Below are positions 4,877-60,153 of a stretch of 64,000 bases of DNA, one piece after another (the stretch's first letter is position 1; the number at the start of each line of letters is the position of its first letter). This DNA is from an uncultured Fimbriimonas sp. (lineage in GTDB: Bacteria; Armatimonadota; Fimbriimonadia; Fimbriimonadales; Fimbriimonadaceae): assembly GCA_945952345.1 (NCBI GenBank), contig CAMFIS010000004.1, positions 11,094 to 75,093 of the forward strand. The letters are read 5' to 3'. The notes under the pieces were generated by a model. That model ran no database searches, had not been told where the DNA came from, and was given only the letters and a program-made list of their open reading frames with translations. A program made the position numbers and the translations under genes.

Positions 4877-5773
4877 ATGCTCGACTCCACTTCCGCTCTG
4901 ACTTCATTGAGTTCTTTCGTATACGGAACTACCCGACTGGGCGATGACAAGATCCCGTGGGGCGACCGTGTGGCAATTGCTAAGCAGGCCATCGACAGTG
5001 GAGTTTGGATTCACACGAGCGATCAGTATGGCGATGCACTCAAGGTTCTAAATGACGCAATTCGGGAAAGTCGGGTGCCTCGGCAAATATTCAAAATTGG
5101 CTGGGAGTCGATCGTACAGATTCGGCATTCGATGAGTTCTCAATTGGAAACGATTGGCTTAGGGGAGATGACGGTCGGCCAATTATGTCTTGGCGGCGCT
5201 TTAGCTGATGCATTTGGAAACGGCGAAGATCGCGCCTTTGAGTTAAATGATTTGATATCCGAAGGAAGAGCGTTGTCATATGTGCTCGAAGTCTTTCCCT
5301 GGACGAGTGCGAATCCACTGTCTGCTTTGCAGAAGGGTCATGCGAGCAAACTCGTGGATGCGTACATCTTCTATTTGAACCCTCTCCAGCGATTCGTAAC
5401 GAACGAGTTGTGGGACCTCATCGTCGAAAAAAAGTTTCCGGTGGTCGCGATGCGGACCGTATGTGGTGGGGATATCTGTTCGCTTGTGAATCGCGAAAGT
5501 TACATTGGCGAGCGGGCAAGGGAGCTCATGCCGTTGTTCGAGCAGTCCCATTGTGAAAGCTGGACCGAGTTCTGCGTGCGATTCCTTAAGGGCTTTCCCT
5601 TCGTCGTCGCGACCGTGGGGTCGACCTCAAACCCGAATAACCTCGAGGTGTTTCTTAACTACAGGTTGGAAGATGTGTCGCCACTGCCAAAGCGGATTCA
5701 GGACGAAATCTTAGTTTTGCAGAGAAAGTGGTCGGACGACGTGGATCGTCACGCCGAGCCTTGGACGATGTGA
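4877..5773 (+). CDS. aldo/keto reductase-like protein
   Basis: 298 aa. The N-terminal segment (YGTTRLGDD...AIAKQAIDSGVWIHTSDQYGDALKVLNDAI) loosely matches the AKR signature (lG...a...Al..Gi..iDTA..YG.sE). Divergent, so low certainty. Confidence 0.45.
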   Translation: MLDSTSALTSLSSFVYGTTRLGDDKIPWGDRVAIAKQAIDSGVWIHTSDQYGDALKVLNDAIRESRVPRQIFKIGWESIVQIRHSMSSQLETIGLGEMTVGQLCLGGALADAFGNGEDRAFELNDLISEGRALSYVLEVFPWTSANPLSALQKGHASKLVDAYIFYLNPLQRFVTNELWDLIVEKKFPVVAMRTVCGGDICSLVNRESYIGERARELMPLFEQSHCESWTEFCVRFLKGFPFVVATVGSTSNPNNLEVFLNYRLEDVSPLPKRIQDEILVLQRKWSDDVDRHAEPWTM

Positions 5774-5778
5774 TTCAT

Positions 5779-5816
5779 CAGAGAACAGAGAACAGAGAAC
5801 AGAGAACAGAGAACAG
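5779..5816. repeat. perfect tandem heptanucleotide repeat (CAGAGAA)x5 + CAG
   Basis: Read directly: five exact CAGAGAA units at 5779-5813 followed by CAG, starting 6 nt after the stop of the upstream CDS. A 7-nt period cannot be coding. Confidence 0.95.
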
Positions 5817-5903
5817 TGCAGGCTGTCGTCATTCCTCGAGTTCCCGTTGTCGCCCCCATCCCAACTATTGCCCCTGAAAAAGAGCAAGGGAAAGGGTTTT
5901 TAG

Positions 5904-6824
5904 CTAGCGGATGATTCCTTCGAGGTGGGCATACCATTTTGCGCCATCGAACCCAAACTTGTAGTATTTGATGACATTCGCAGGCGGGAACGAGATGAGG
6001 TTCGGGTTTGTGGGCGACCGGATTCCCCAAGTACAGATGCAAACCTGGCCATAGTTGGGAAAGTCGTTGTCGATGATTTGCTCGGTGCCAATGACTGACT
6101 CGCTGCTGAAATTCAGCATGATATTAGTGTATTTGCGATCTTGCCACAACTTCGCATTTCTGCGTGCCCCAAGAGATTGGATTCCAAATGTTGGCTCAAT
6201 GACTCCAAGCTGTGTACTTGGAGTCGATGTGAGAGATCGGCCAAGAAGGACAAAGCTAGCGCCACCTGAATGGTCGTTTCGATATGCTGGATAGGTGGCG
6301 ACCGTCATAGACGACATTACATTGTCTTGGGTTTGTCTGGGTTGACCATTGCCGAAGTCGATGGTTTGGATGTCGTGGGATCGTTCAAATAGCGAGTATT
6401 TAAATTGTTGGCTCTGCTCTTTCCAGCCAATCGTGTCGTGTCCGTCAACAACGATCATGGAGCGTTTTTGCATATCATGCTCGTTGAGAATGTTGGCTAA
6501 CTTCGCCCTGATAGGATCGTTGACGGCTTGTTCCTTGTCAAATTCAATGCTCGTTATCGGATGAACGTTGTTCGCCACCAAGTACAAATCTATGTCGAAT
6601 CTTGGCGCTGTGCTGTATATCTCTTGCGCCTGAAGCCCGGCTGAATGTCCACCAAAAAGTAATAATCCAATCATCCTTCCATCCCTTGTAGGTCCCGACG
6701 TTTGGCCCTTCAGAAAATTTACAAGCACTGGCCGTGGTAAGACTCCCATATGGTCCGGCTTCATGTGCGATTCGAAAATGCGCCGACATCTTTCGAGCCT
6801 TATGGTGCGATTCGTTTGGTGCAT
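5904..6824 (-). CDS. hypothetical protein (contains GHSAG nucleophile-elbow-like motif)
   Basis: 306-aa ORF with non-repetitive, protein-like composition. LLLFGGHSAGLQ resembles a GxSxG serine-hydrolase elbow but lies unusually close to the N-terminus. The start is uncertain because internal Met codons at 6764 and 6749 would remove the overlap with the divergent ORF at 6750. Confidence 0.5.
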   Translation of the reverse strand: MHQTNRTIRLERCRRIFESHMKPDHMGVLPRPVLVNFLKGQTSGPTRDGRMIGLLLFGGHSAGLQAQEIYSTAPRFDIDLYLVANNVHPITSIEFDKEQAVNDPIRAKLANILNEHDMQKRSMIVVDGHDTIGWKEQSQQFKYSLFERSHDIQTIDFGNGQPRQTQDNVMSSMTVATYPAYRNDHSGGASFVLLGRSLTSTPSTQLGVIEPTFGIQSLGARRNAKLWQDRKYTNIMLNFSSESVIGTEQIIDNDFPNYGQVCICTWGIRSPTNPNLISFPPANVIKYYKFGFDGAKWYAHLEGIIR

Positions 6825-7664: not shown

Positions 7665-8939
7665 TTAGCCGATTGATTTGGAGCCGAAATAGCCGTGAAG
7701 GGCTTCGGGGATTGAGATGTTTCCGCTGGCGTCCTGGAAGGTCTCCAAAATCGCAGCGTATAGTCGCGGCACGGCGACGCCCGAGCCGTTGAGGATATGG
7801 ACGAACTCCGGCTTGGCTCCGGCCTCTGGGCGGAAGCGGATGTTGGCCCGGCGAGATTGGTAGTCGCCGAAGTTGCCGCAGCTCGAGACTTCGAGGTATT
7901 TGCCCACTCCGGGGGACCAGACTTCGATGTCGTAGATCTTGGTCGCCTTCGAGCCCATGTCGCCAGTGCAGAGTTCGATGACGCGGTAGTGGAGACCCAA
8001 AGCTTGAAGGATTGCTTCGGCGTCCGTTACCAATGCTTCGAGCTCGTCGTAGCTGGTGGAGGGTTCGACGAATTTGACCATTTCGACCTTGTCGAACTGG
8101 TGGATTCGTTGGATACCTCGTGTGTCTTTTCCAGCTGCGCCCGCTTCGCGTCGGAAGCAGCCCGAGAATGCCGCGTGCTTGATCGGCAATTGGCCGGCAT
8201 CGAGGATTTCGTCGCGATACAGGTTGGTTACCGGGACTTCGGCGGTCGGAATAAGGAAGAAGTCATCGATGGTCTTGTACAAATCGTCTTCGAACTTCGG
8301 CAAGTTTCCGGTTCCGATCAGCGATTCGCGGTTGACCACGAACGGGGGGTAGATCTCCTCGTAACCGTTCTTGGTCGTTTGGAAATCGACCATGAAGTTG
8401 AAGAGCGCGCGCTGGAAGCGGGCACCGACTCCCTTGTACACGACCCATCCGGAGCCGGTGATCTTCGCGCCACGGGCGAGGTCGATCATGTTGTGCTGAT
8501 CGCACAGGTCCCAGTGGGGCTTGGGTTCGAAGTCGAACGACGGCTTGATTCCCCACTCGCGGATGACGGGATTCTGAGTTTCATCGTCGCCGTCGGGCGC
8601 GCTGTCGTGGGGGATATTGGGGAAATTGAGTTCAACGTCGTGGAGCTTGGCTTCGAGCAGGCGTTGCTGATCCTCGAGTTCTCCAACTCGCTTCTTGAGT
8701 TCGGCGGCTTGGGTCTTGGCAGCTTCTGCCTCGTCCTTCTTTCCCTGACCCATGAGCATGCCGATGCTCTTGGAAACCTGGTTCATCTCGGCCTGCGCGT
8801 TGCCGGTTTCGGTGGCCACGCGTCGGAAGTCGGCGTCCACGGCGAGGAATTCGTCGACGATCGACGAGTCCATTCGCTTGCGTTGGATTCCGGTCCGGAC
8901 GAGGTCCGGCTGCTTGCGAATGAGTTCTCGATCGAGCAT
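7665..8939 (-). CDS. serS: serine--tRNA ligase
   Basis: 424 aa. It has the N-terminal coiled-coil arm (MLDRELIRKQPDLV...), class II motifs (FRREAGAAGKDTRGIQRIHQF; GSGVAVPR) and the typical SerS length. Confidence 0.97.
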   Translation of the reverse strand: MLDRELIRKQPDLVRTGIQRKRMDSSIVDEFLAVDADFRRVATETGNAQAEMNQVSKSIGMLMGQGKKDEAEAAKTQAAELKKRVGELEDQQRLLEAKLHDVELNFPNIPHDSAPDGDDETQNPVIREWGIKPSFDFEPKPHWDLCDQHNMIDLARGAKITGSGWVVYKGVGARFQRALFNFMVDFQTTKNGYEEIYPPFVVNRESLIGTGNLPKFEDDLYKTIDDFFLIPTAEVPVTNLYRDEILDAGQLPIKHAAFSGCFRREAGAAGKDTRGIQRIHQFDKVEMVKFVEPSTSYDELEALVTDAEAILQALGLHYRVIELCTGDMGSKATKIYDIEVWSPGVGKYLEVSSCGNFGDYQSRRANIRFRPEAGAKPEFVHILNGSGVAVPRLYAAILETFQDASGNISIPEALHGYFGSKSIG

Positions 8940-8961
8940 AAGAGTTAGATTTTAGCTTATC

Positions 8962-9074
8962 CAGAGCACAAAGCACAGAGCACAGAGTGCCTTAAACCCC
9001 CATCCCAACCCTTTCCCCTCCCAAGGAGCAAGGGGAAGGGCCTGCCCAGAGTGCGGAGTGCAGAGTGTGAGGTT
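8962..9074. repeat. composite intergenic element: heptamer array / CCCCCATCCCAAC box / GC hairpin / heptamer array
   Basis: 8962-8989 reads CAGAGCA CAAAGCA CAGAGCA CAGAGTG. 8997-9009 is CCCCCATCCCAAC, identical to 5853-5865. 9009-9040 is the hairpin CCCTTTCCCCT...AGGGGAAGGG. 9047-9074 reads CAGAGTG CGGAGTG CAGAGTG TGAGGTT. Confidence 0.85.
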
Positions 9075-9889: not shown

Positions 9890-11184
9890 GGCTTTTCTGG
9901 GTCTGACGCTTGGTCATCGGCGAGAATTCTTTTGGCGGCTTTGCGCCGGGCCCGAACGATGAGGAAGATGGGGAGGCCTACGGTGAGCATGCAGCAACCG
10001 CCGAGAATGCTTCCAATTGCGAGGACTTCTTTCTGGTCCTGGCGAAGCGTGGGTTCGAGAGAGGCGAGATCGACGTGCGGCGGTTCCTTCCAGTCATCCC
10101 AGAAGTGCGGATCGACATCGGGATGTCTCCCTTGCTTGAGTTTGCCTTTGATAAATCCGTCTAGGGTGGTCCGGTACAGGCTGGCGTTGTCGAGGAGCGC
10201 CTTGTATTGGCGGAAGAAAACGCCTGAATCCACCGGAAAATATGTCGCACTGGTGCGCAGGCCAGCAAAGGCTATCTTTTTTTCGCTGAGCTTCCTGATT
10301 CGCTGGTATGCGATTTGGTGAAGCAATCCTTTATCGTTAGGAATGGTGGCTTGCAGAGCCGCGATCAGGTCCGGAGAGTCAGGTCCACCTCCCAAAGTCA
10401 TCATGCCGATCACCCCTTTTGCCACCTTATCAGCACCGGTCTTTTCCACGAATTTCTCCCACTCGTCTTCGTTATCGCCGGGCATGTCGAGGTAGTTCTG
10501 CATTTCTAGGTTTGCTTGCGGGGAGGCAAGCTTCGACATGAGACCTTTGTGTGCAAGTTCAATCATCTTAACTTGAACAATTTCGCGTCCAAAGTGAGCA
10601 TCGGGATTAATCGAAATACACTTCTTGAGGTGGGCGATCGACTTGTCGAGGAGAGATTTATCTTGATGGTCGGCCGAGCGGAACCACGAGTGAGCTTCTA
10701 TCGTGCCGAGGTTTGCGTAGTAGCGGTACTCGTGCTCCTTGTTGGGATGGGCATCCAGAGCTTTGCGCTTGATTGCGGCATAGCGAAAGGCTTCTTTCGA
10801 GTTACCGAGCTTGTCATAAGCGACAATGAGATTATCGAGTTCATCCAAATTGGCTGGATCGTTGGCGACGATTTTTGACGATCGGTCGATGCGGAACTGG
10901 TAGTACTCAGGAGGATAAATTTGAATACGTCCAACCAAGGCATCGACAAGGTCGGGCAAACCCTTGGCCTCGGCCGACATGGTGTCGTAGTCCCAGGCGC
11001 AGGCGGCCGACATCGCCGCCATGGCAATCGTAGCTAGGATAGGAAGAATTTTGGCTCGCAAGGTTGGATTTCCTAGAATTTCGGACGAAGGATGGATCAG
11101 GACAAATTCCTCACATTTTTGAGAATTCTCAATATCGGGGGCTTTTTCGCTTGAACTGAATTTGAAAATAAGACAGAATAGCAT
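9886..11184 (-). CDS. TPR-like protein with N-terminal signal peptide and C-terminal membrane anchor
   Basis: 432-aa ORF. The likely true start is the TTG at 11061, giving (M)RAKILPILATIAMAAMSAACAWDYDT, a signal peptide followed by Cys. It has helical-repeat composition and a C-terminal TM helix (VLAIGSILGGCCMLTVGLPIFLIV) followed by a basic tail. Confidence 0.65.
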   Translation of the reverse strand: MLFCLIFKFSSSEKAPDIENSQKCEEFVLIHPSSEILGNPTLRAKILPILATIAMAAMSAACAWDYDTMSAEAKGLPDLVDALVGRIQIYPPEYYQFRIDRSSKIVANDPANLDELDNLIVAYDKLGNSKEAFRYAAIKRKALDAHPNKEHEYRYYANLGTIEAHSWFRSADHQDKSLLDKSIAHLKKCISINPDAHFGREIVQVKMIELAHKGLMSKLASPQANLEMQNYLDMPGDNEDEWEKFVEKTGADKVAKGVIGMMTLGGGPDSPDLIAALQATIPNDKGLLHQIAYQRIRKLSEKKIAFAGLRTSATYFPVDSGVFFRQYKALLDNASLYRTTLDGFIKGKLKQGRHPDVDPHFWDDWKEPPHVDLASLEPTLRQDQKEVLAIGSILGGCCMLTVGLPIFLIVRARRKAAKRILADDQASDPEKP

Positions 11185-11240
11185 TGGAAGCGTGCCGCCT
11201 GCCTGTCAGTCGGTCGTGCAATCCGAAGGTGTGGGTTTTA

Positions 11241-11259
11241 TAAGGAACATAGGAAAGTG
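11241..11259 (+). promoter_or_regulatory. conserved 19-mer TAAGGAACATAGGAAAGTG in the SLH-porin leader (copy 1)
   Basis: Identical 19-mer at 14119-14137 upstream of the paralogous gene, 83 and 94 nt before the respective ATGs. Flanks are similar (GGGTTTTA / GGGATTTG before, CCCC after). Confidence 0.6.
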
Positions 11260-11323
11260 TAAAGCCCCTCTGAAGGAGAGCCGTTCGACGATATTCGTCG
11301 GCATTAATCCGCAGGAGACATGG

Positions 11324-13234
11324 ATGAAGCGAACGTATAAGTACGCTCTGACGGTGGTCCTTGGTCTGGGGGTTGCTTCGGTAGCTTTTGGCCAAGATGG
11401 CTTTCCGGATGTAAAAGACACCCATTGGGCGGCCGATAGCGTCAATCGCTTGAAGTTGACCGGTCTTATCCACGGGGATAGCGACGGCAAATTCAACGGC
11501 GACCGCACAATGACTCGTTATGAAGTCGCGACGATCCTCTACGCGGTTTACAACAAACTGGTCGGTTTCAATGCCGATGTAGAGAAGAATCTTCGCGCGC
11601 TCGAAGCCAAAGTGAATAGCATGAAGGCTCCCGAGCAAGGTCCAAACATCGACCTTACCGACGTCAAATCGGCGATTGCCGATCTGCAACGGGAAGTAGG
11701 ATCGATGAAGTCCTGGAGCGCAGACCTGGCACAGCTGAAGAAGATGCTGCCGAACTACGCACAGGAACTGAAGTCGCTCGGCCAAGATGTCGACGACATG
11801 AAGAAGAAGGTCACGGATATTTCTTCCCGAGTTTCCAAGCTTGAGAAGGGTCCCGGCGGCGTTCAGATTTCTGGCGACATGAACACGTGGATGGCCTCCA
11901 CCTCGCCGTCGGCCGGTTCGACCGTGGTCTTCGACCAAGACGGACGATTCCTCCCGACGAGCAGCACGGCAGCAGGTTTCAACCCGCTGATCATGCTGCA
12001 CGAGCTGGGTGTCAAGTTTGCCGATCCGACCGCGAATGTGCCTTTCAAGGCGGAAGTCGTGATCGGTAACTCGGTAACTGACGGCCGAAACCTCGGTGGA
12101 TTTGGTTCGCAGACTTGGCTTCCGAGCCAGATCGCGACGCCGATCTTCAGTGGCGACGAAACGGTTTACATCAGCGAAGCAACCGCGATGTACAAGCCGA
12201 TGAACCTCCTCGTGGGTCGACAAGGCGTGATGCTGAACAAGTTCATCATGCGACGACCTGACAACACCTGGTCGTTCGACAACGAGCGATGGGACAACCA
12301 CAAGTACTCGTTCGACGGCGCCAACATGGGTCTGTTCAGCGACAAAGTACACGTGTTCACGGGTACGACCAACAACGTGATCAACTCGGCCGGCGGAAAC
12401 GTCCAGCCGTTGTTCTCGGGCGGTCTCCCGGTCGAGCGAATCTTTGGCGCAACGGCTGACTTCAGCTTTGGTGGCGACAAGGGTAAGGTTCAGGCTAGCT
12501 GGGTCAACTTCGATGGTTCGATCGGTTTCAATCCATTCGTGGCCAAGCCTCTCGGCGAAACCGGTCCTCCTCCTCCTCCTTCCGGAACGACCCGATACAA
12601 CGTGTACGGCGCTGACGCATCGTACAACTTCGGGGCCGTCCAAGCGGAGATCGGCGGTGGTAAGTCGACGGCGATTGGTATTCCTGAGCAAACCAACGCT
12701 GCTCAGCCGATGATCAGCACGCTGGTCGACACGGCTAACAGCCGATGGGATGCCTCGCTGAGTTCCAAGAACGACCGATTTGGTTGGAAGCTCGCATATC
12801 GAAGCGTGGAAATCAACTACTTTGCACCAGGCGACTGGGGTCGAGTAGGCATCCTCCGCAACCTTAACGACACCCGAGCGGTCACCGCTTCGGCCATGTT
12901 GAAGGCTACGGACAAGCTGCACCTGCACGGTTGGTATGAGCGCGGCGACGCGATCCAGGGTCCTGGCGACTACACCACGTGGCGCGCCGGTCTTGGCTAC
13001 CAGCTCACTCCGAAATGGATGATGGACTTCATGTACGACGATGCCAAGTTCCGAAATGGATACCAAGGCTTTGCCGCGAACACGGAAAGCAAGTTCTCCA
13101 CGGTCACCCTGGGCTACGATCTTGGCGAGAAGACGATGCTGAACCTCTTCGTTCAGAACTCGGACCTCAAGAACGTCATCAATGCCGCTAACAAGGGCTA
13201 CTTCTACGGCATGAACTTCTCTGTGAAGTTCTAA
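11324..13234 (+). CDS. SLH-domain / coiled-coil / beta-barrel outer-membrane protein (OmpM/SlpA-type porin-tether), paralog 1
   Basis: An internal ATG at 11324 gives the signal peptide MKRTYKYALTVVLGLGVASVAFGQ. An SLH motif follows (FPDVKDTHWAADSVNRLKLTGLIHGDSDGKFNGDRTMTRYEVATILY), then a ~100-aa coiled-coil, then alternating-hydrophobic beta strands ending in a C-terminal Phe (FSVKF). Confidence 0.85.
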   Translation: MKRTYKYALTVVLGLGVASVAFGQDGFPDVKDTHWAADSVNRLKLTGLIHGDSDGKFNGDRTMTRYEVATILYAVYNKLVGFNADVEKNLRALEAKVNSMKAPEQGPNIDLTDVKSAIADLQREVGSMKSWSADLAQLKKMLPNYAQELKSLGQDVDDMKKKVTDISSRVSKLEKGPGGVQISGDMNTWMASTSPSAGSTVVFDQDGRFLPTSSTAAGFNPLIMLHELGVKFADPTANVPFKAEVVIGNSVTDGRNLGGFGSQTWLPSQIATPIFSGDETVYISEATAMYKPMNLLVGRQGVMLNKFIMRRPDNTWSFDNERWDNHKYSFDGANMGLFSDKVHVFTGTTNNVINSAGGNVQPLFSGGLPVERIFGATADFSFGGDKGKVQASWVNFDGSIGFNPFVAKPLGETGPPPPPSGTTRYNVYGADASYNFGAVQAEIGGGKSTAIGIPEQTNAAQPMISTLVDTANSRWDASLSSKNDRFGWKLAYRSVEINYFAPGDWGRVGILRNLNDTRAVTASAMLKATDKLHLHGWYERGDAIQGPGDYTTWRAGLGYQLTPKWMMDFMYDDAKFRNGYQGFAANTESKFSTVTLGYDLGEKTMLNLFVQNSDLKNVINAANKGYFYGMNFSVKF

Positions 13235-13254: not shown

Positions 13255-13287
13255 CGAAGGGCCGGTCGATATTCGACCGGCCCTTCG
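13255..13287 (+). terminator. stem-loop downstream of SLH porin 1
   Basis: Perfect 15-bp inverted repeat CGAAGGGCCGGTCGA / TCGACCGGCCCTTCG with a 3-nt loop, 21 nt after the stop. No T-tract follows. Confidence 0.6.
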
Positions 13288-13292
13288 CAATT

Positions 13293-13334
13293 TAGCTGCT
13301 AGCGACAAGCCACAAGTTGCAAGAACCTTGCTAA
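13293..13334. repeat. 7-nt-phased array TAGCTGC TAGCGAC AAGCCAC AAGTTGC AAGAACC TTGCTAA
   Basis: Six consecutive heptamers with a conserved (T/A)AG...C frame, immediately after the 13255-13287 hairpin. Confidence 0.7.
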
Positions 13335-56824: not shown

Positions 56825-57295
56825 ATGGCAAAATCTCCACTTCACGCCGACGATCACGGGCATCACATTCACTCACGGGGGATGTATTGGACGACCGCTG
56901 GAGTCCTCGCTGCTTTCATGCTTCTCACGATTGGCGCGGCGCAAGTGAACATTGGCGACTATATCCATAACGCCAAACTTGGTTACTACGCCAACAACGG
57001 AATCGCATGGGTGATCGCGGGTATCAAAGCATACATCGTTGTCATGTACTTCATGCACCTCAAGTGGGCGTCGAGCACGGCTAAGATTTGGGCTCTGATG
57101 GGCTTCTTCTTCTTGCCGATTCTGTTCTCCGTCTACTGCGATTACTACACTCGATCGCATGAGGTGGTTGATGGGTGGATCCCGGGCCAACACGAGACTG
57201 CGTTGCCGCGGGTTATCGGCTCGAAGGACCAGGAAGAGCTGCCATCGAAGTATGCGAATGAGCAGAACCGTAATCCAAAGAGTAGCCTTTGGTAA
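56825..57295 (+). CDS. ctaF: cytochrome c oxidase subunit IV family protein (prokaryotic)
   Basis: 156 aa. It has a His-rich N-terminus followed by three TM helices (HGHHIHSRGMYWTTAGVLAAFMLLT...). It occupies the last position of the oxidase operon. Confidence 0.7.
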   Translation: MAKSPLHADDHGHHIHSRGMYWTTAGVLAAFMLLTIGAAQVNIGDYIHNAKLGYYANNGIAWVIAGIKAYIVVMYFMHLKWASSTAKIWALMGFFFLPILFSVYCDYYTRSHEVVDGWIPGQHETALPRVIGSKDQEELPSKYANEQNRNPKSSLW

Positions 57296-57296
57296 T

Positions 57297-57384
57297 CAGA
57301 GAACAGCAAGCTGAGAACCGTGAATAGTTAAGAGGGAGTTGGGTAGCCAACTCCCTCTTTTCATTGAGCAATGAGCGATGAGGT
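57297..57384. repeat. heptamer-phased arrays flanking the cta terminator
   Basis: 57297-57331 reads CAGAGAA CAGCAAG CTGAGAA CCGTGAA TAGTTAA. 57362-57384 reads CATTGAG CAATGAG CGATGAG. The hairpin at 57330-57359 lies between the two arrays. Confidence 0.75.
57330..57361 (+). terminator. rho-independent terminator of the ACIII-caa3 transcription unit
   Basis: AAGAGGGAGTTGG-GTAG-CCAACTCCCTCTT is followed by TT, 35 nt after the ctaF stop. Confidence 0.8.
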
Positions 57385-58649: not shown

Positions 58650-58789
58650 CAGTGAACTGTAAGCAGCGAGCAGCGAACAGGGTAAAGAATGAAGAAAGAA
58701 GGGAGAAGGGAGAAGTAAAAAATGAATAGCCAGCTCACGAGGAACTGGCTATTCTGATTTCTGATCTCTGCTTACTGTTCTCTGGTTAC
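58650..58789. repeat. inverted heptamer-phased arrays around a 10-bp hairpin
   Basis: 58650-58726 is eleven phased heptamers (CAGTGAA CTGTAAG CAGCGAG CAGCGAA CAGGGTA AAGAATG AAGAAAG AAGGGAG AAGGGAG AAGTAAA AAATGAA). The hairpin is GAATAGCCAG (58724-58733) / CTGGCTATTC (58745-58754). 58755-58789 is the opposite-orientation array (TGATTTC TGATCTC TGCTTAC TGTTCTC TGGTTAC). Confidence 0.85.
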
Positions 58790-60153
58790 TTGCTCGACTT
58801 TCCAGTGTCGAGGTTGACGAATGTACCCATCAGCGTCTTCTCGGCGGCACCCTTGTCGCCGCTTTGCAGCGCACGGAGAGCCATCGTGACTTCTTGCGCT
58901 TCGGCGGTGCGTCCTTCGTTGACCAGGAGCATCTGCGTCTTCTGCAGTTCTTGGATAGCACCCATCTGAGTGATGGCGCCCGTCTTGAGGCCCATAACCG
59001 TCTTCTCGATCGCTTTGCTCGAGGCAACGATCTGAGCGGCCTGAGAAACGCGAGGATTGACGGGAGACGAGTAGCGAGCCGAGTCGGACGAGAATTCCAT
59101 CTCGAAGTCGAGATCAAGCGTTACATGCTGACCCGTCATCAGGTCTTCGTAATTTAGCTTGCCACCCAAGACTCGGTAATGCCCGAGCGGGTGATTGGCG
59201 AATTCGAGATCGATGACTTGTTGGATCGTCGTACCGCGCTCCATATCGGCGAGACCCACCGTGACAGTTCCATCGGTCGCTTGCTGGGGTGATCGCATGG
59301 AGACCCAACGCGCCAGCTTAAGCTCGAGCGACATGTTGCGAGTGACCGTCGTCATCAGCTTTTCTAGCTCAGACCGGAAGATTTCGGGGATCATCTGCGG
59401 TTGAGGAATGAAGTAGTAGTTTCCGCCTGCCTTCTTTGCCATACCGGCGAGAAGTTCTTCATTGTAATCGGGACCAAATCCGAGGAATGTGACCGAGATA
59501 CCGCGGTTTCGTAGCTCGCCCGCGTGATTGACCAAGGCGGTGTAATCCTTGATTCCTGCCGTCGGGTCGCCGTCGGTCAAGACGATCATTCGTGTTGCCC
59601 GGTTAGATTCGATGAACTGCATCACTTGCTGCATTGCAAGCGAGATGCCGTCGTACAGGTTCGTGGTGTTGCCAGCCTGAAGTCGAGCGATGCCAGCCTT
59701 AACCATGTCTTTGTTCGTGAGCTGCTGGGGAGGCATCAGAACTTCAACCATCTCTTCGAAGGTGACGATGCTGAGAACGTCGGTAGGAAGGAGCAGGTCG
59801 ACCACGTGCGAACAGGCCTGCTTGACGTACTCAAGCGGTTGCCCTTCCATAGAACCTGATCGGTCGATGACGAGACAAAGATTCATCGGAGTTCGCCCAC
59901 CGCTGACGATGCCGCCAAAGGTTTCGCCTCCGCCACCAGCGCGAAGCTCGAGCAGGTACTGCTCGCGTGCTGGGCCGTTGGCCATGGTGCAGGTGCGTCC
60001 CGCGATGATCTCGACCTCGAGGGCTTTCATGGGCGCCATCACCGAGGTACGACCCATGTCGGTTGGGCTCATTGCCACGGTTCTTTGTCCACCCGCAGTT
60101 GGGGCGCTCGTCATAACGGTTTGGTTGATATCTACTCTTTGTGTAAGGTCCAT
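58786..60153 (-). CDS. cytoplasmic von Willebrand factor A (vWA) domain protein
   Basis: 455 aa with no signal peptide. The MIDAS motif is intact (LVIDRSGSMEG ... NTTNLYDG ... LTDGDPT). It has a Thr/Ser/Met-rich N-terminal ~60 aa and a C-terminal beta-rich plus helical region. Confidence 0.85.
   Translation of the reverse strand: MDLTQRVDINQTVMTSAPTAGGQRTVAMSPTDMGRTSVMAPMKALEVEIIAGRTCTMANGPAREQYLLELRAGGGGETFGGIVSGGRTPMNLCLVIDRSGSMEGQPLEYVKQACSHVVDLLLPTDVLSIVTFEEMVEVLMPPQQLTNKDMVKAGIARLQAGNTTNLYDGISLAMQQVMQFIESNRATRMIVLTDGDPTAGIKDYTALVNHAGELRNRGISVTFLGFGPDYNEELLAGMAKKAGGNYYFIPQPQMIPEIFRSELEKLMTTVTRNMSLELKLARWVSMRSPQQATDGTVTVGLADMERGTTIQQVIDLEFANHPLGHYRVLGGKLNYEDLMTGQHVTLDLDFEMEFSSDSARYSSPVNPRVSQAAQIVASSKAIEKTVMGLKTGAITQMGAIQELQKTQMLLVNEGRTAEAQEVTMALRALQSGDKGAAEKTLMGTFVNLDTGKSSK

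Follow-up and report, generated by a model that had tools for sequence, protein, structure and literature searches.

The DNA considered here is a stretch of 64,000 nucleotides from an uncultured Fimbriimonas sp. (contig CAMFIS010000004.1 of assembly GCA_945952345.1, positions 11,094 to 75,093), hereafter the window, and the element in question is a tandem heptanucleotide array at positions 5779-5816. This array is one of a genome-wide set of intergenic heptamer repeats, a known but unexplained repeat class (short tandemly repeated repetitive sequences, STRR, or long simple sequence repeats, SSR) that is found here in a new lineage. A preliminary description of the window had drawn attention to the heptamers, and four features lie beyond its view: an invariant AG dinucleotide, a strict polarity at gene ends, phasing with the stop codon, and a link with genes of the PF05635 family.

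The array at 5779-5816 and its surroundings

The perfect repeat that the preliminary description placed after a stop codon is present, with five exact CAGAGAA units followed by CAG (period 7, 5.4 copies, 100% match and a score of 76 in Tandem Repeats Finder, TRF). The TGA stop at 5771-5773 is followed by a 5-nt spacer, TTCAT, and then by the first unit at 5779. The features between the two convergent genes of this locus, and the genes themselves, are as follows:

4877-5773, plus strand: upstream coding sequence of 298 aa, weakly aldo/keto-reductase-like (open reading frame list, codon score, orthologues)
5779-5816, plus strand: (CAGAGAA)x5.4 array with six in-phase AG dinucleotides, in the sense of the upstream gene; stop-abutting and solitary
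5853-5897, plus strand: degenerate copy of a repetitive extragenic palindrome-like (REP-like) element, located between the array and the gene at 5904-6824 and made up of CCCCCATCCCAAC, a CCC..GGG hairpin and a run of T; fold z -1.07, not significant
5904-6824, minus strand: convergent coding sequence of 306 aa without a Pfam match, its gene end at 5904

The upstream coding sequence has the top codon score among the six frames and orthologues at 71-74% identity in genomes of the same genus, while its match to Pfam PF00248 (E 2.6e-5) falls slightly under the family cut-off. The convergent gene ends 87 nt downstream of the array. Starting 5 nt past the stop codon, the array lies outside any reading frame or promoter spacer, and the genes that flank it are of housekeeping type. 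No inverted partner of the array occurs within 150 nt, and there is no PF05635 match on its contig (C4), hence none in the window. A strict terminator scan of 5600-6100 returned no terminator, the 3' spacer downstream of 4877-5773 folds no better than its shuffles (z -1.07), and Rfam covariance models gave no match at gathering score anywhere in the window.

Both flanking genes have atypical codon usage, with log-odds of 7 and 2 for 4877-5773 and 5904-6824, respectively, against about 30-130 for their neighbours, and the 298-aa gene is missing from most species of the genus. Codon usage and this patchy presence suggest that the two convergent genes were recently acquired.

A genome-wide excess of period seven

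The genome, referred to as G000, comprises 3.96 Mb in 304 contigs (numbered with C) at 55% G+C; other G numbers denote related genomes. Its closest public records are titled 'MAG: Armatimonadota bacterium' (metagenome-assembled genome), in line with the earlier view that the host is not a cyanobacterium. The proposal that heptamers form an intergenic system across the whole genome is borne out by three kinds of period-7 scan: TRF, a pattern search and autocorrelation. Across the assembly, the number of TRF arrays is 295 for period 7 but 95 for period 6 and 89 for period 8; when the score is limited to 50 or more, the respective numbers are 50, four and none. According to gene calls from a heuristic made for this analysis (3274 genes, 84% coding), 238 of the 295 arrays are non-coding and thus fall within 16% of the genome, a density of 370 per Mb compared with 17 per Mb in coding DNA, or 21-fold. 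The degenerate pattern (AGNNNTS)x3+AG occurs at 52 loci, counted as overlapping matches, and its counterparts with periods 5, 6, 8 and 9 occur at none. Intergenic autocorrelation at lag 7 is 0.2578 against about 0.251 at neighbouring lags. Since masking of the 231 merged arrays, which total 7 kb, removes this excess, the signal comes from discrete arrays, the median length of which is about four units.

Several contigs end in arrays (C141, C149, C297 and C91). The same arrays are internal to contigs in dozens of independent assemblies, closed genomes included, and for this reason the arrays at contig ends are read as a cause of assembly breaks rather than as artefacts. Arrays of GCTTTCG/CGAAAGC (C69:16493, C21:21757, C21:22571, C9:39243, C141:1, C91:1) lie inside a larger dispersed repeat with GGCATCCCGAGAGCGTCAAGCGAATCGGGA upstream and common flanks, and this repeat breaks the assembly at several contig ends.

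The AG core of the repeat unit

Individual units are diverse. By number of loci, the most frequent are CAGGCTT (18), GAGTTGT (16), CAGCAGT (13), TAGCGTT (11) and CAGAGCA (9), alongside others. Despite this diversity, an in-phase AG is present in at least 80% of the units in 215 of the 238 intergenic arrays, compared with 137 for the runner-up dinucleotide, and the consensus unit is AG-Y-N-N-T-S. Period-7 arrays in coding DNA have no preference of the AG type. Measured against each array's own consensus, the A deviates in 2.3% of units and the G in 0.6%, compared with 13-20% of units at positions 4-5.

The AG also defines the strand of an array, the G/T-rich one of the two. An unsupervised alignment of units had misplaced the strand of the CAGAG families and gave no bias (98 vs 96); re-orientation by gene sense and AG phase exposed the polarity described below. 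On the sense strand, stop-abutting arrays are 33% G and 19% C.

Position, polarity and pairing

Arrays cluster at the 3' ends of genes. Of 248 distances from an array to an adjacent gene 3' end, 89 are 10 nt or less, where about 23 are expected, and there is no comparable excess at 5' ends. The AG strand begins within 10 nt of a co-directional stop in 78 of 124 cases, compared with 8 of 119 in which its 3' end lies that near to a convergent stop. Of the 87 stop-abutting arrays, 83 have AG on the sense strand; 72 have more G than C, against 10 with the opposite bias. The stop codon itself is often part of the register: TAG supplies the AG of the first unit in 33 of 45 instances and TGA does so, as TGAG, in 11 of 20, while TAA stops have no preference. 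Arrays fill precisely the interval that separates the stop codon from the functional element after it. A sense AG array also follows 5 of 42 tRNA genes at a distance of 5-10 nt, and none precedes a tRNA gene; because arrays follow tRNA genes as well, the polarity rule is not about translation.

A second group is found near gene starts, where 54 arrays lie 4-60 nt upstream of the start in CT orientation. Within 40 nt of the start, 42 arrays are of the CT type in the sense of the gene and six are of the AG type. A -10-like TANNNT often lies between such an array and the ATG. Both groups follow a single geometry, in which arrays line the edges of spacers and the AG strand runs, 5' to 3', into the spacer and away from the adjacent gene.

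The same geometry appears in the pairing of arrays. Among neighbours within 150 nt, 22 pairs are convergent, none is divergent and eight are direct, and a complementary partner at -25 kcal or below is found on the 3' side of 56 arrays compared with the 5' side of 20. The preliminary description had the arrays lying next to hairpins, which is correct within the window but does not extend to the genome. Canonical hairpin and T-run terminators follow 17 of 79 stop-abutting arrays and 146 of 600 array-free genes, thus without enrichment, and the folding energy of the 50-nt flanks of arrays equals that of random intergenic DNA. Where a terminator is present, it begins about 5 nt past the array.

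Two possible roles were considered and set aside. Back-up stop codons do not serve as a general role, as the families CAGGCTT, CAGCAGT and CAGAGCA contain no stop and arrays also occur after tRNA genes. Primase sites, with primers starting AG at CTG/CTA templates, were dropped because AG arrays occur on both strands of one spacer and because the polarity tracks genes, not replication.

PF05635 genes between inverted arms

G000 has nine genes of PF05635, the family of the '23S rRNA intervening-sequence protein', among them C44:8477-8851 and C109:10255-10644. They are described under TIGR02436 as 'four helix bundle protein', with a weak match to Avd, a protein of diversity-generating retroelements (DGRs). 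The nearest solved structure to their products is XCC0516 of Xanthomonas campestris, with five chains. Three of the nine genes have TRF arrays on both sides within 130 nt, compared with seven of 2832 genes overall (p 2.6e-6). A further three to four have arms that can be recognised by eye, and in each case the gene is preceded by the AG arm and followed by the CT arm. Brackets of this kind are found at C44, C109, C172 and C228, with partial ones at C199 and C272. In the related genomes G003, G004 and G049, the sole period-7 arrays in loci of 3.3 kb are two inverted ones that flank a PF05635 gene.

One such insertion recurs across the genus. In at least ten species, a PF05635 gene lies between the groES stop and the groEL start, inside inverted tandem-repeat arms:

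L052, L054-L056, L058, L059, L066, L067, L069, L070 and G000 C176:1-421: groES-groEL PF05635 cassette (alignment of loci)

The arms of this cassette vary between species in sequence, unit and period (7 or 10). Their complementarity in relatives was read mainly from the alignment, as duplex z values over 170-nt PF05635 flanks are noisy, with 9 of 21 at z of -3 or below. Judging from the aligned loci, the groES-groEL insertion is old and its arms have been rewritten in place yet have stayed complementary, and this is the strongest hint of a pairing constraint.

Genomes of the phylum with more PF05635 copies tend to have more arrays (rho 0.50, uncorrected for ancestry or genome size). The share of array-rich genomes is 4% with no PF05635 gene, 14% with one copy, 25% with two to four, and 70% with five or more.

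Two candidate mobilisers were rejected. Y1 transposases of the IS200/RAYT type have an array within 600 nt at 4 of 26 genes, where about 2.4 are expected, and their correlation with arrays across the phylum is weak (rho 0.25). A DGR-like retro-mechanism is ruled out in G000, as the genome has no RVT_1 (reverse transcriptase) domain. The 26 copies of the Y1 transposase, of about 150 aa, are the genus maximum (for instance C54:12889-13341, C202:3132-3584, C101:1475-1927 and C127:6351-6788). Many of these genes were missed by the codon-usage gene caller, which suggests an atypical composition.

A second, purine-rich repeat family, GAAGCGGCAGGGCCAGCGCAAAGAAG-like, occurs at C20:11400-12200 and in the flanks of C7:33162, C7:45691, C119:9766 and C212:1088. 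One PF05635 gene lies between inverted arms formed by this family, copies of which also lie beside several heptamer arrays.

Distribution and turnover among relatives

Arrays are patchily distributed. In the genus to which the Genome Taxonomy Database (GTDB) assigns this genome, about 15 of 46 species are array-rich and about 25 have none or one. At least one match was found in 81 of 201 sampled Armatimonadota genomes and at least 20 in about 35, across many families and with the same style of unit.

At single loci, arrays change rapidly. For example, the end of the orthologous 298-aa gene has arrays in three to four close relatives, with another unit (TTTCAGC/CTGAAAG) and other copy numbers. 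At the end of a COX4-like gene, the interval from the stop to the terminator, both of which are conserved, contains an array in some species and none in others, and the array of G004 was apparently seeded from TTCAGCC at the foot of the hairpin. The paralogous loci C7:33162 and C7:45691 differ in copy number alone (5.6 vs 9.6). These comparisons of sequence indicate that arrays arise locally, change size and vanish quickly; conservation at a particular locus was not found.

Other arrays and a REP-like element in the window

The seven other arrays that had been listed for the window are all 7-nt phased, and on AG. Together with the REP-like element that lies between the first two, which are halves of one array, they are:

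8962-8989, plus strand: CAGAGCA/CAGAGTG array, left half; AG in phase in 4 of 4 units; CT-type in the sense of serS
8990-9046, plus strand: REP-like element within the array, with CAGAGTG on both flanks (sequence reading)
9047-9074, plus strand: CAGAGTG array, right half, in direct orientation with 8962-8989; AG in phase in 3 of 4 units
13293-13334, plus strand: degenerate array TAGCTGC TAGCGAC AAGCCAC AAGTTGC AAGAACC; AG in phase in 5 of 6 units; under the TRF threshold
57296-57331, plus strand: degenerate array CAGAGAA CAGCAAG CTGAGAA CCGTGAA TAGTTAA; AG in phase in 3 of 5 units (57297-57331)
57362-57384, plus strand: short array GAGCAAT GAGCGAT GAGGT after a hairpin; AG in phase in 3 of 3 units
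58650-58726, plus strand: AG-phased array of eleven units that forms the left arm of a convergent pair, with the hairpin 58724-58754 in the middle; AG in phase in 9 of 11 units
58755-58789, minus strand: right arm of the pair, CAGAGAA CAGTAAG CAGAGAT CAGAAAT; AG in phase in 4 of 5 units

The array at 8962-8989 lies 22 nt upstream of the ATG of serS (7665-8939, minus strand), and this interval contains a -10-like TAAAAT. The array at 13293-13334 comes after a hairpin (13255-13287) downstream of the gene at 11162-13234. The COX4-like gene ends in a TAA at 57293-57295, and the array at 57296-57331 starts 1-2 nt past it and runs into the hairpin 57331-57359. The array at 58755-58789 starts 2 nt past the TAA of a vWA gene (58786-60153, minus strand); beyond it come a hairpin and then a stretch of T.

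The box CCCCCATCCCAAC occurs at both places given for it earlier, 5853-5865 and 8997-9009. It stands apart from the heptamer system, forming the 5' portion of an independent palindromic element (about 45 bp, REP-like) that has about 25 genomic copies with the consensus CCCCCATCCCAACCCTTCCCCCTCCCAAAGAGCAAGGGGAAGGGCT, most of them away from heptamer arrays. In some copies, the halves of the element are split by longer inserts. By its sequence, the copy at 8990-9046 looks like either an insertion into a heptamer array or the product of a 7-bp duplication. Elements related to it fill the orthologous vWA spacer in G011 and G018.

Some further observations concern transcription. A -10-like TANNNT (TAAACT, TATACT, TAGACT) 7-20 nt before the start, with no visible Shine-Dalgarno sequence, is seen at 8940-8961 and in about 25 other promoters, a pattern that suggests that mRNAs with short leaders or none are common in this organism. 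Downstream of the rho gene (C248:505-1908, minus strand) lie two arrays, the first of TTAGCGN, with a terminator hairpin between them (C248:457-620). The Rho protein is ordinary apart from a 35-aa N-terminal tail rich in N, Q and R.

Comparison with known repeat systems

Heptamers were described as the commonest long simple repeat in many bacteria by Mrazek et al. 2007, as that work is quoted in two later papers, and polymerase slippage was proposed as their source (PMC4679880, PMC4692102). The closest parallel is with Xanthomonas, which has about 185 GGGAATC arrays, and with Nostoc PCC 7120, which has arrays of GGGGA(C/T)T (Rehm et al. 2015, PMC4692102). About 90% of these arrays are intergenic. 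They lie nearer to the upstream open reading frame, are sparse between divergent genes and form 70-75 convergent pairs; they vary in length and sequence between close relatives and have no assigned function (PMC4692102). The likeness extends to the number of arrays per genome (about 180-230), a typical length of about four units, polarity, convergent pairs and intergenic bias (PMC4692102). In those genomes, however, a single unit with a G tract is repeated, whereas dozens of units with only the AG core in common are found here, most of them unable to form G-quadruplexes. Two features of the present arrays, their register with the stop codon and their association with PF05635 genes, were not reported for Xanthomonas and Nostoc (PMC4692102), and the phylum is a different one.

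In marine Beggiatoaceae, some Cyanobacteria and Bacteroidetes, TAACTGA repeats lie right upstream of start codons, and binding by S1, cold-shock proteins (Csp) or CsrA was proposed for them (MacGregor 2015, PMC4679880). They resemble the present arrays in being intergenic and 2-6 units long, in a reverse complement (AGTTATC) that fits AGYNNTS, and in their CT orientation before starts. They differ in having a single unit at ribosome-binding positions, whereas most arrays here are stop-abutting and many of the start-proximal ones lie upstream of a -10-like box. A preprint on Nostoc describes modest regulatory effects of heptamer repeats and no mechanism.

Beyond these systems, the arrays of G000 share with cyanobacterial STRR their tandem heptanucleotides, their intergenic location and the presence of multiple unit families per genome. 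STRR of heterocystous cyanobacteria are said to have been described by Mazel et al. in 1990 as tandem intergenic heptanucleotides with several unit families in each genome. The cyanobacterial units CCCCAGT, TTGGTCA and CAACAGT were not found here, where the units are CAGAGAA, CAGGCTT, GAGTTGT and others and the host belongs to the Armatimonadota.

For the bracketed genes, the nearest relatives are the intervening sequences (IVS) of 23S rRNA. That of Coxiella burnetii is cut out by RNase III, carries a gene of the PF05635 family and is regarded as selfish (Warrier et al. 2016, PMC4990558). In IVS of Coxiella and Leptospira (S23p/PF05635 open reading frame) as in the present inserts, inverted arms enclose a PF05635 gene inside a transcription unit. 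Unlike the IVS, which sit in rRNA, the inserts described here sit in mRNA spacers (groES-groEL, after stops) and have arms of tandem heptamers or decamers; moreover, most arm pairs are gene-free and many arrays are solitary, that at 5779-5816 included. A literature search found no report on heptamer arrays in Armatimonadota.

Interpretation and alternative explanations

The interpretation favoured here, to which we give about even chances, is that the arrays are slippage-made arms of IVS-like RNA hairpins and that the array at 5779-5816 is a solitary arm, either a remnant or incipient. Heptamer arrays would grow from local seeds and be resized by replication slippage, and convergent arrays would pair into a long transcript stem that tolerates shifts of register. 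In its full form, the stem would enclose an Avd-like PF05635 four-helix-bundle gene. By analogy with the 23S rRNA intervening sequences excised by RNase III, the arms may let the insert reside within a transcription unit such as groES-groEL. With the G-rich arm transcribed first, no single-stranded C-rich RNA that attracts Rho would be exposed before the stem closes. The array at 5779-5816 would then be an arm of the 5' type with no cargo, filling the 3' untranslated spacer from the stop codon to the REP-like hairpin and probably conferring no gene-specific regulation.

Several observations weigh against the stem interpretation. A stem alone accounts for neither the invariant AG nor the period of 7, which leaves room for a protein that reads the arrays. 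The strand-specific folding energy of array pairs has no asymmetry that would indicate a constraint at the RNA level. Pairs called by TRF take in only about 20% of arrays, 82 of 231 arrays fall outside every positional class, and the array at 5779-5816 itself has neither a partner nor a PF05635 gene nearby. The correlation with PF05635 copy number is partly trivial if each gene brings two arms. Lastly, the end of the vWA gene is array-free in nine of nine relatives (87-93% protein identity), which argues against a locus-specific function.

The arrays could also be read as pure mutational filler, in which a 7-nt slippage bias (Mrazek) generates arrays, selection clears them from coding and regulatory DNA, and there is neither a function nor a real tie to PF05635. 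This is the likeliest of the alternatives, although we consider it unlikely. That heptamers outnumber all other long SSRs in many bacteria (Mrazek 2007, as quoted in PMC4679880 and PMC4692102) speaks for filler, as do the fast turnover between species with array-free orthologous gene ends, the apparent seeding from local sequence, the two C7 loci that differ in copy number alone, and the exact fit of arrays between the stop codon and the next functional element. Neutral slippage, however, predicts no strand rule, whereas stop abutment is 78 versus 8 and pairs are convergent rather than divergent by 22 to 0. It likewise predicts even decay, whereas AG is 5-30 times less variable than positions 4-5. 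Filler also leaves unexplained why distant families of the phylum share the AGYNNTS style and why complementary arms around one gene are kept over genus-level divergence despite their change in sequence, and the patchiness within the genus fits a property of the core replicase poorly. Another alternative, akin to the protein- or RNA-binding array of the preliminary description, is a periodic binding platform, on which an oligomeric protein would read one AG heptamer per subunit on RNA or single-stranded DNA, in the manner of HutP, which binds (UAG-N4)3, or of cold-shock domains with their 7-nt footprint. The PF05635 four-helix-bundle proteins, solved relatives of which are pentameric, might themselves be the readers, and the arrays would be putative regulatory or maintenance sites. 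The 7-nt spacing of the invariant AG, kept exactly while positions 4-5 vary, has the signature of a recognition core, and the median of about four units, the strict strand polarity and the dose-like relation between PF05635 copy number and array richness would all suit a platform. So would the five-chain structure of XCC0516, which comes from the heptamer-rich Xanthomonas campestris, and the weak match to Avd, reportedly a nucleic-acid-binding pentamer (Alayyoubi et al. 2013). The protein binding proposed for TAACTGA repeats (PMC4679880), the reverse complement of which follows the same consensus, also speaks for a platform. Nevertheless, a platform appears distinctly improbable: units are highly diverse outside AG, period-10 arms around the same gene in some species clash with a fixed 7-nt register, some array-rich genomes have no or one PF05635 gene (G152, G253, G060, G082), and a DGR-like role for the Avd relative is excluded in G000 by the missing reverse transcriptase.

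The polarity of the arrays could alternatively reflect Rho-based insulators, in which transcripts entering a gene from outside would carry the C-rich, G-poor strand and be terminated by Rho, while those leaving would be G-rich. This is highly unlikely. The symmetric polarity at both gene ends, the G and C content of the sense strand and the presence of rho are as such a model would have them. The C-rich strand, however, is only 33% C, with 19% G, and its invariant dinucleotide is CU, whereas the primary site of Rho prefers YC. Many arrays have 3-4 units (20-30 nt), far below the length of a rut site, the Rho of G000 has no unusual RNA-binding insertion, and the 7-nt period is unaccounted for. 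Two further explanations, a phase-variation (contingency) tract and an assembly artefact, are so improbable that they can practically be dismissed, even though perfect tandem repeats are prone to slippage and several contigs end in arrays. The preliminary description had suggested a contingency tract, and the positions of the arrays speak against it: they lie after stops or tRNA genes or upstream of core promoters, and neither in coding DNA nor in the promoter spacers of variable surface genes. At 5779-5816 the tract is 3' of a stop, so that changes in unit number shift no reading frame or promoter spacer, and the flanking genes are of the housekeeping kind. As for an artefact, arrays of the same kind are internal to the contigs of dozens of assemblies made independently, some of them closed genomes, which argues against it.

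The stem interpretation could be extended into a single mechanism. Heptamer and decamer arrays would then be cis elements of a pan-bacterial, selfish IVS-type cassette, which would leave solitary arrays and pairs without a gene as its footprints; a PF05635 pentamer would read these arrays, with their one conserved dinucleotide in each unit, or help to propagate them. This extension is speculative and, in our estimation, rather unlikely.

Significance

Heptamer repeats have been known since 1990; genomes of cyanobacteria, Xanthomonas and others each contain hundreds of them, and both their function and the mechanism that generates them are unestablished. The present findings add a new phylum and place three constraints on any explanation: an AG every 7 nt; a geometry that leads from gene ends into the spacer, with convergent pairs; and a register shared with the stop codon. 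The association with PF05635 genes provides a testable clue to the role of the arrays. For annotation, arrays mark true gene ends, and they account for many contig breaks in assemblies of this lineage. If true, the reading of the arrays as parts of a PF05635 cassette would unite cyanobacterial STRR, the GGGAATC repeats of Xanthomonas and the TAACTGA repeats of Beggiatoa under one mechanism, more than 35 years after their discovery.

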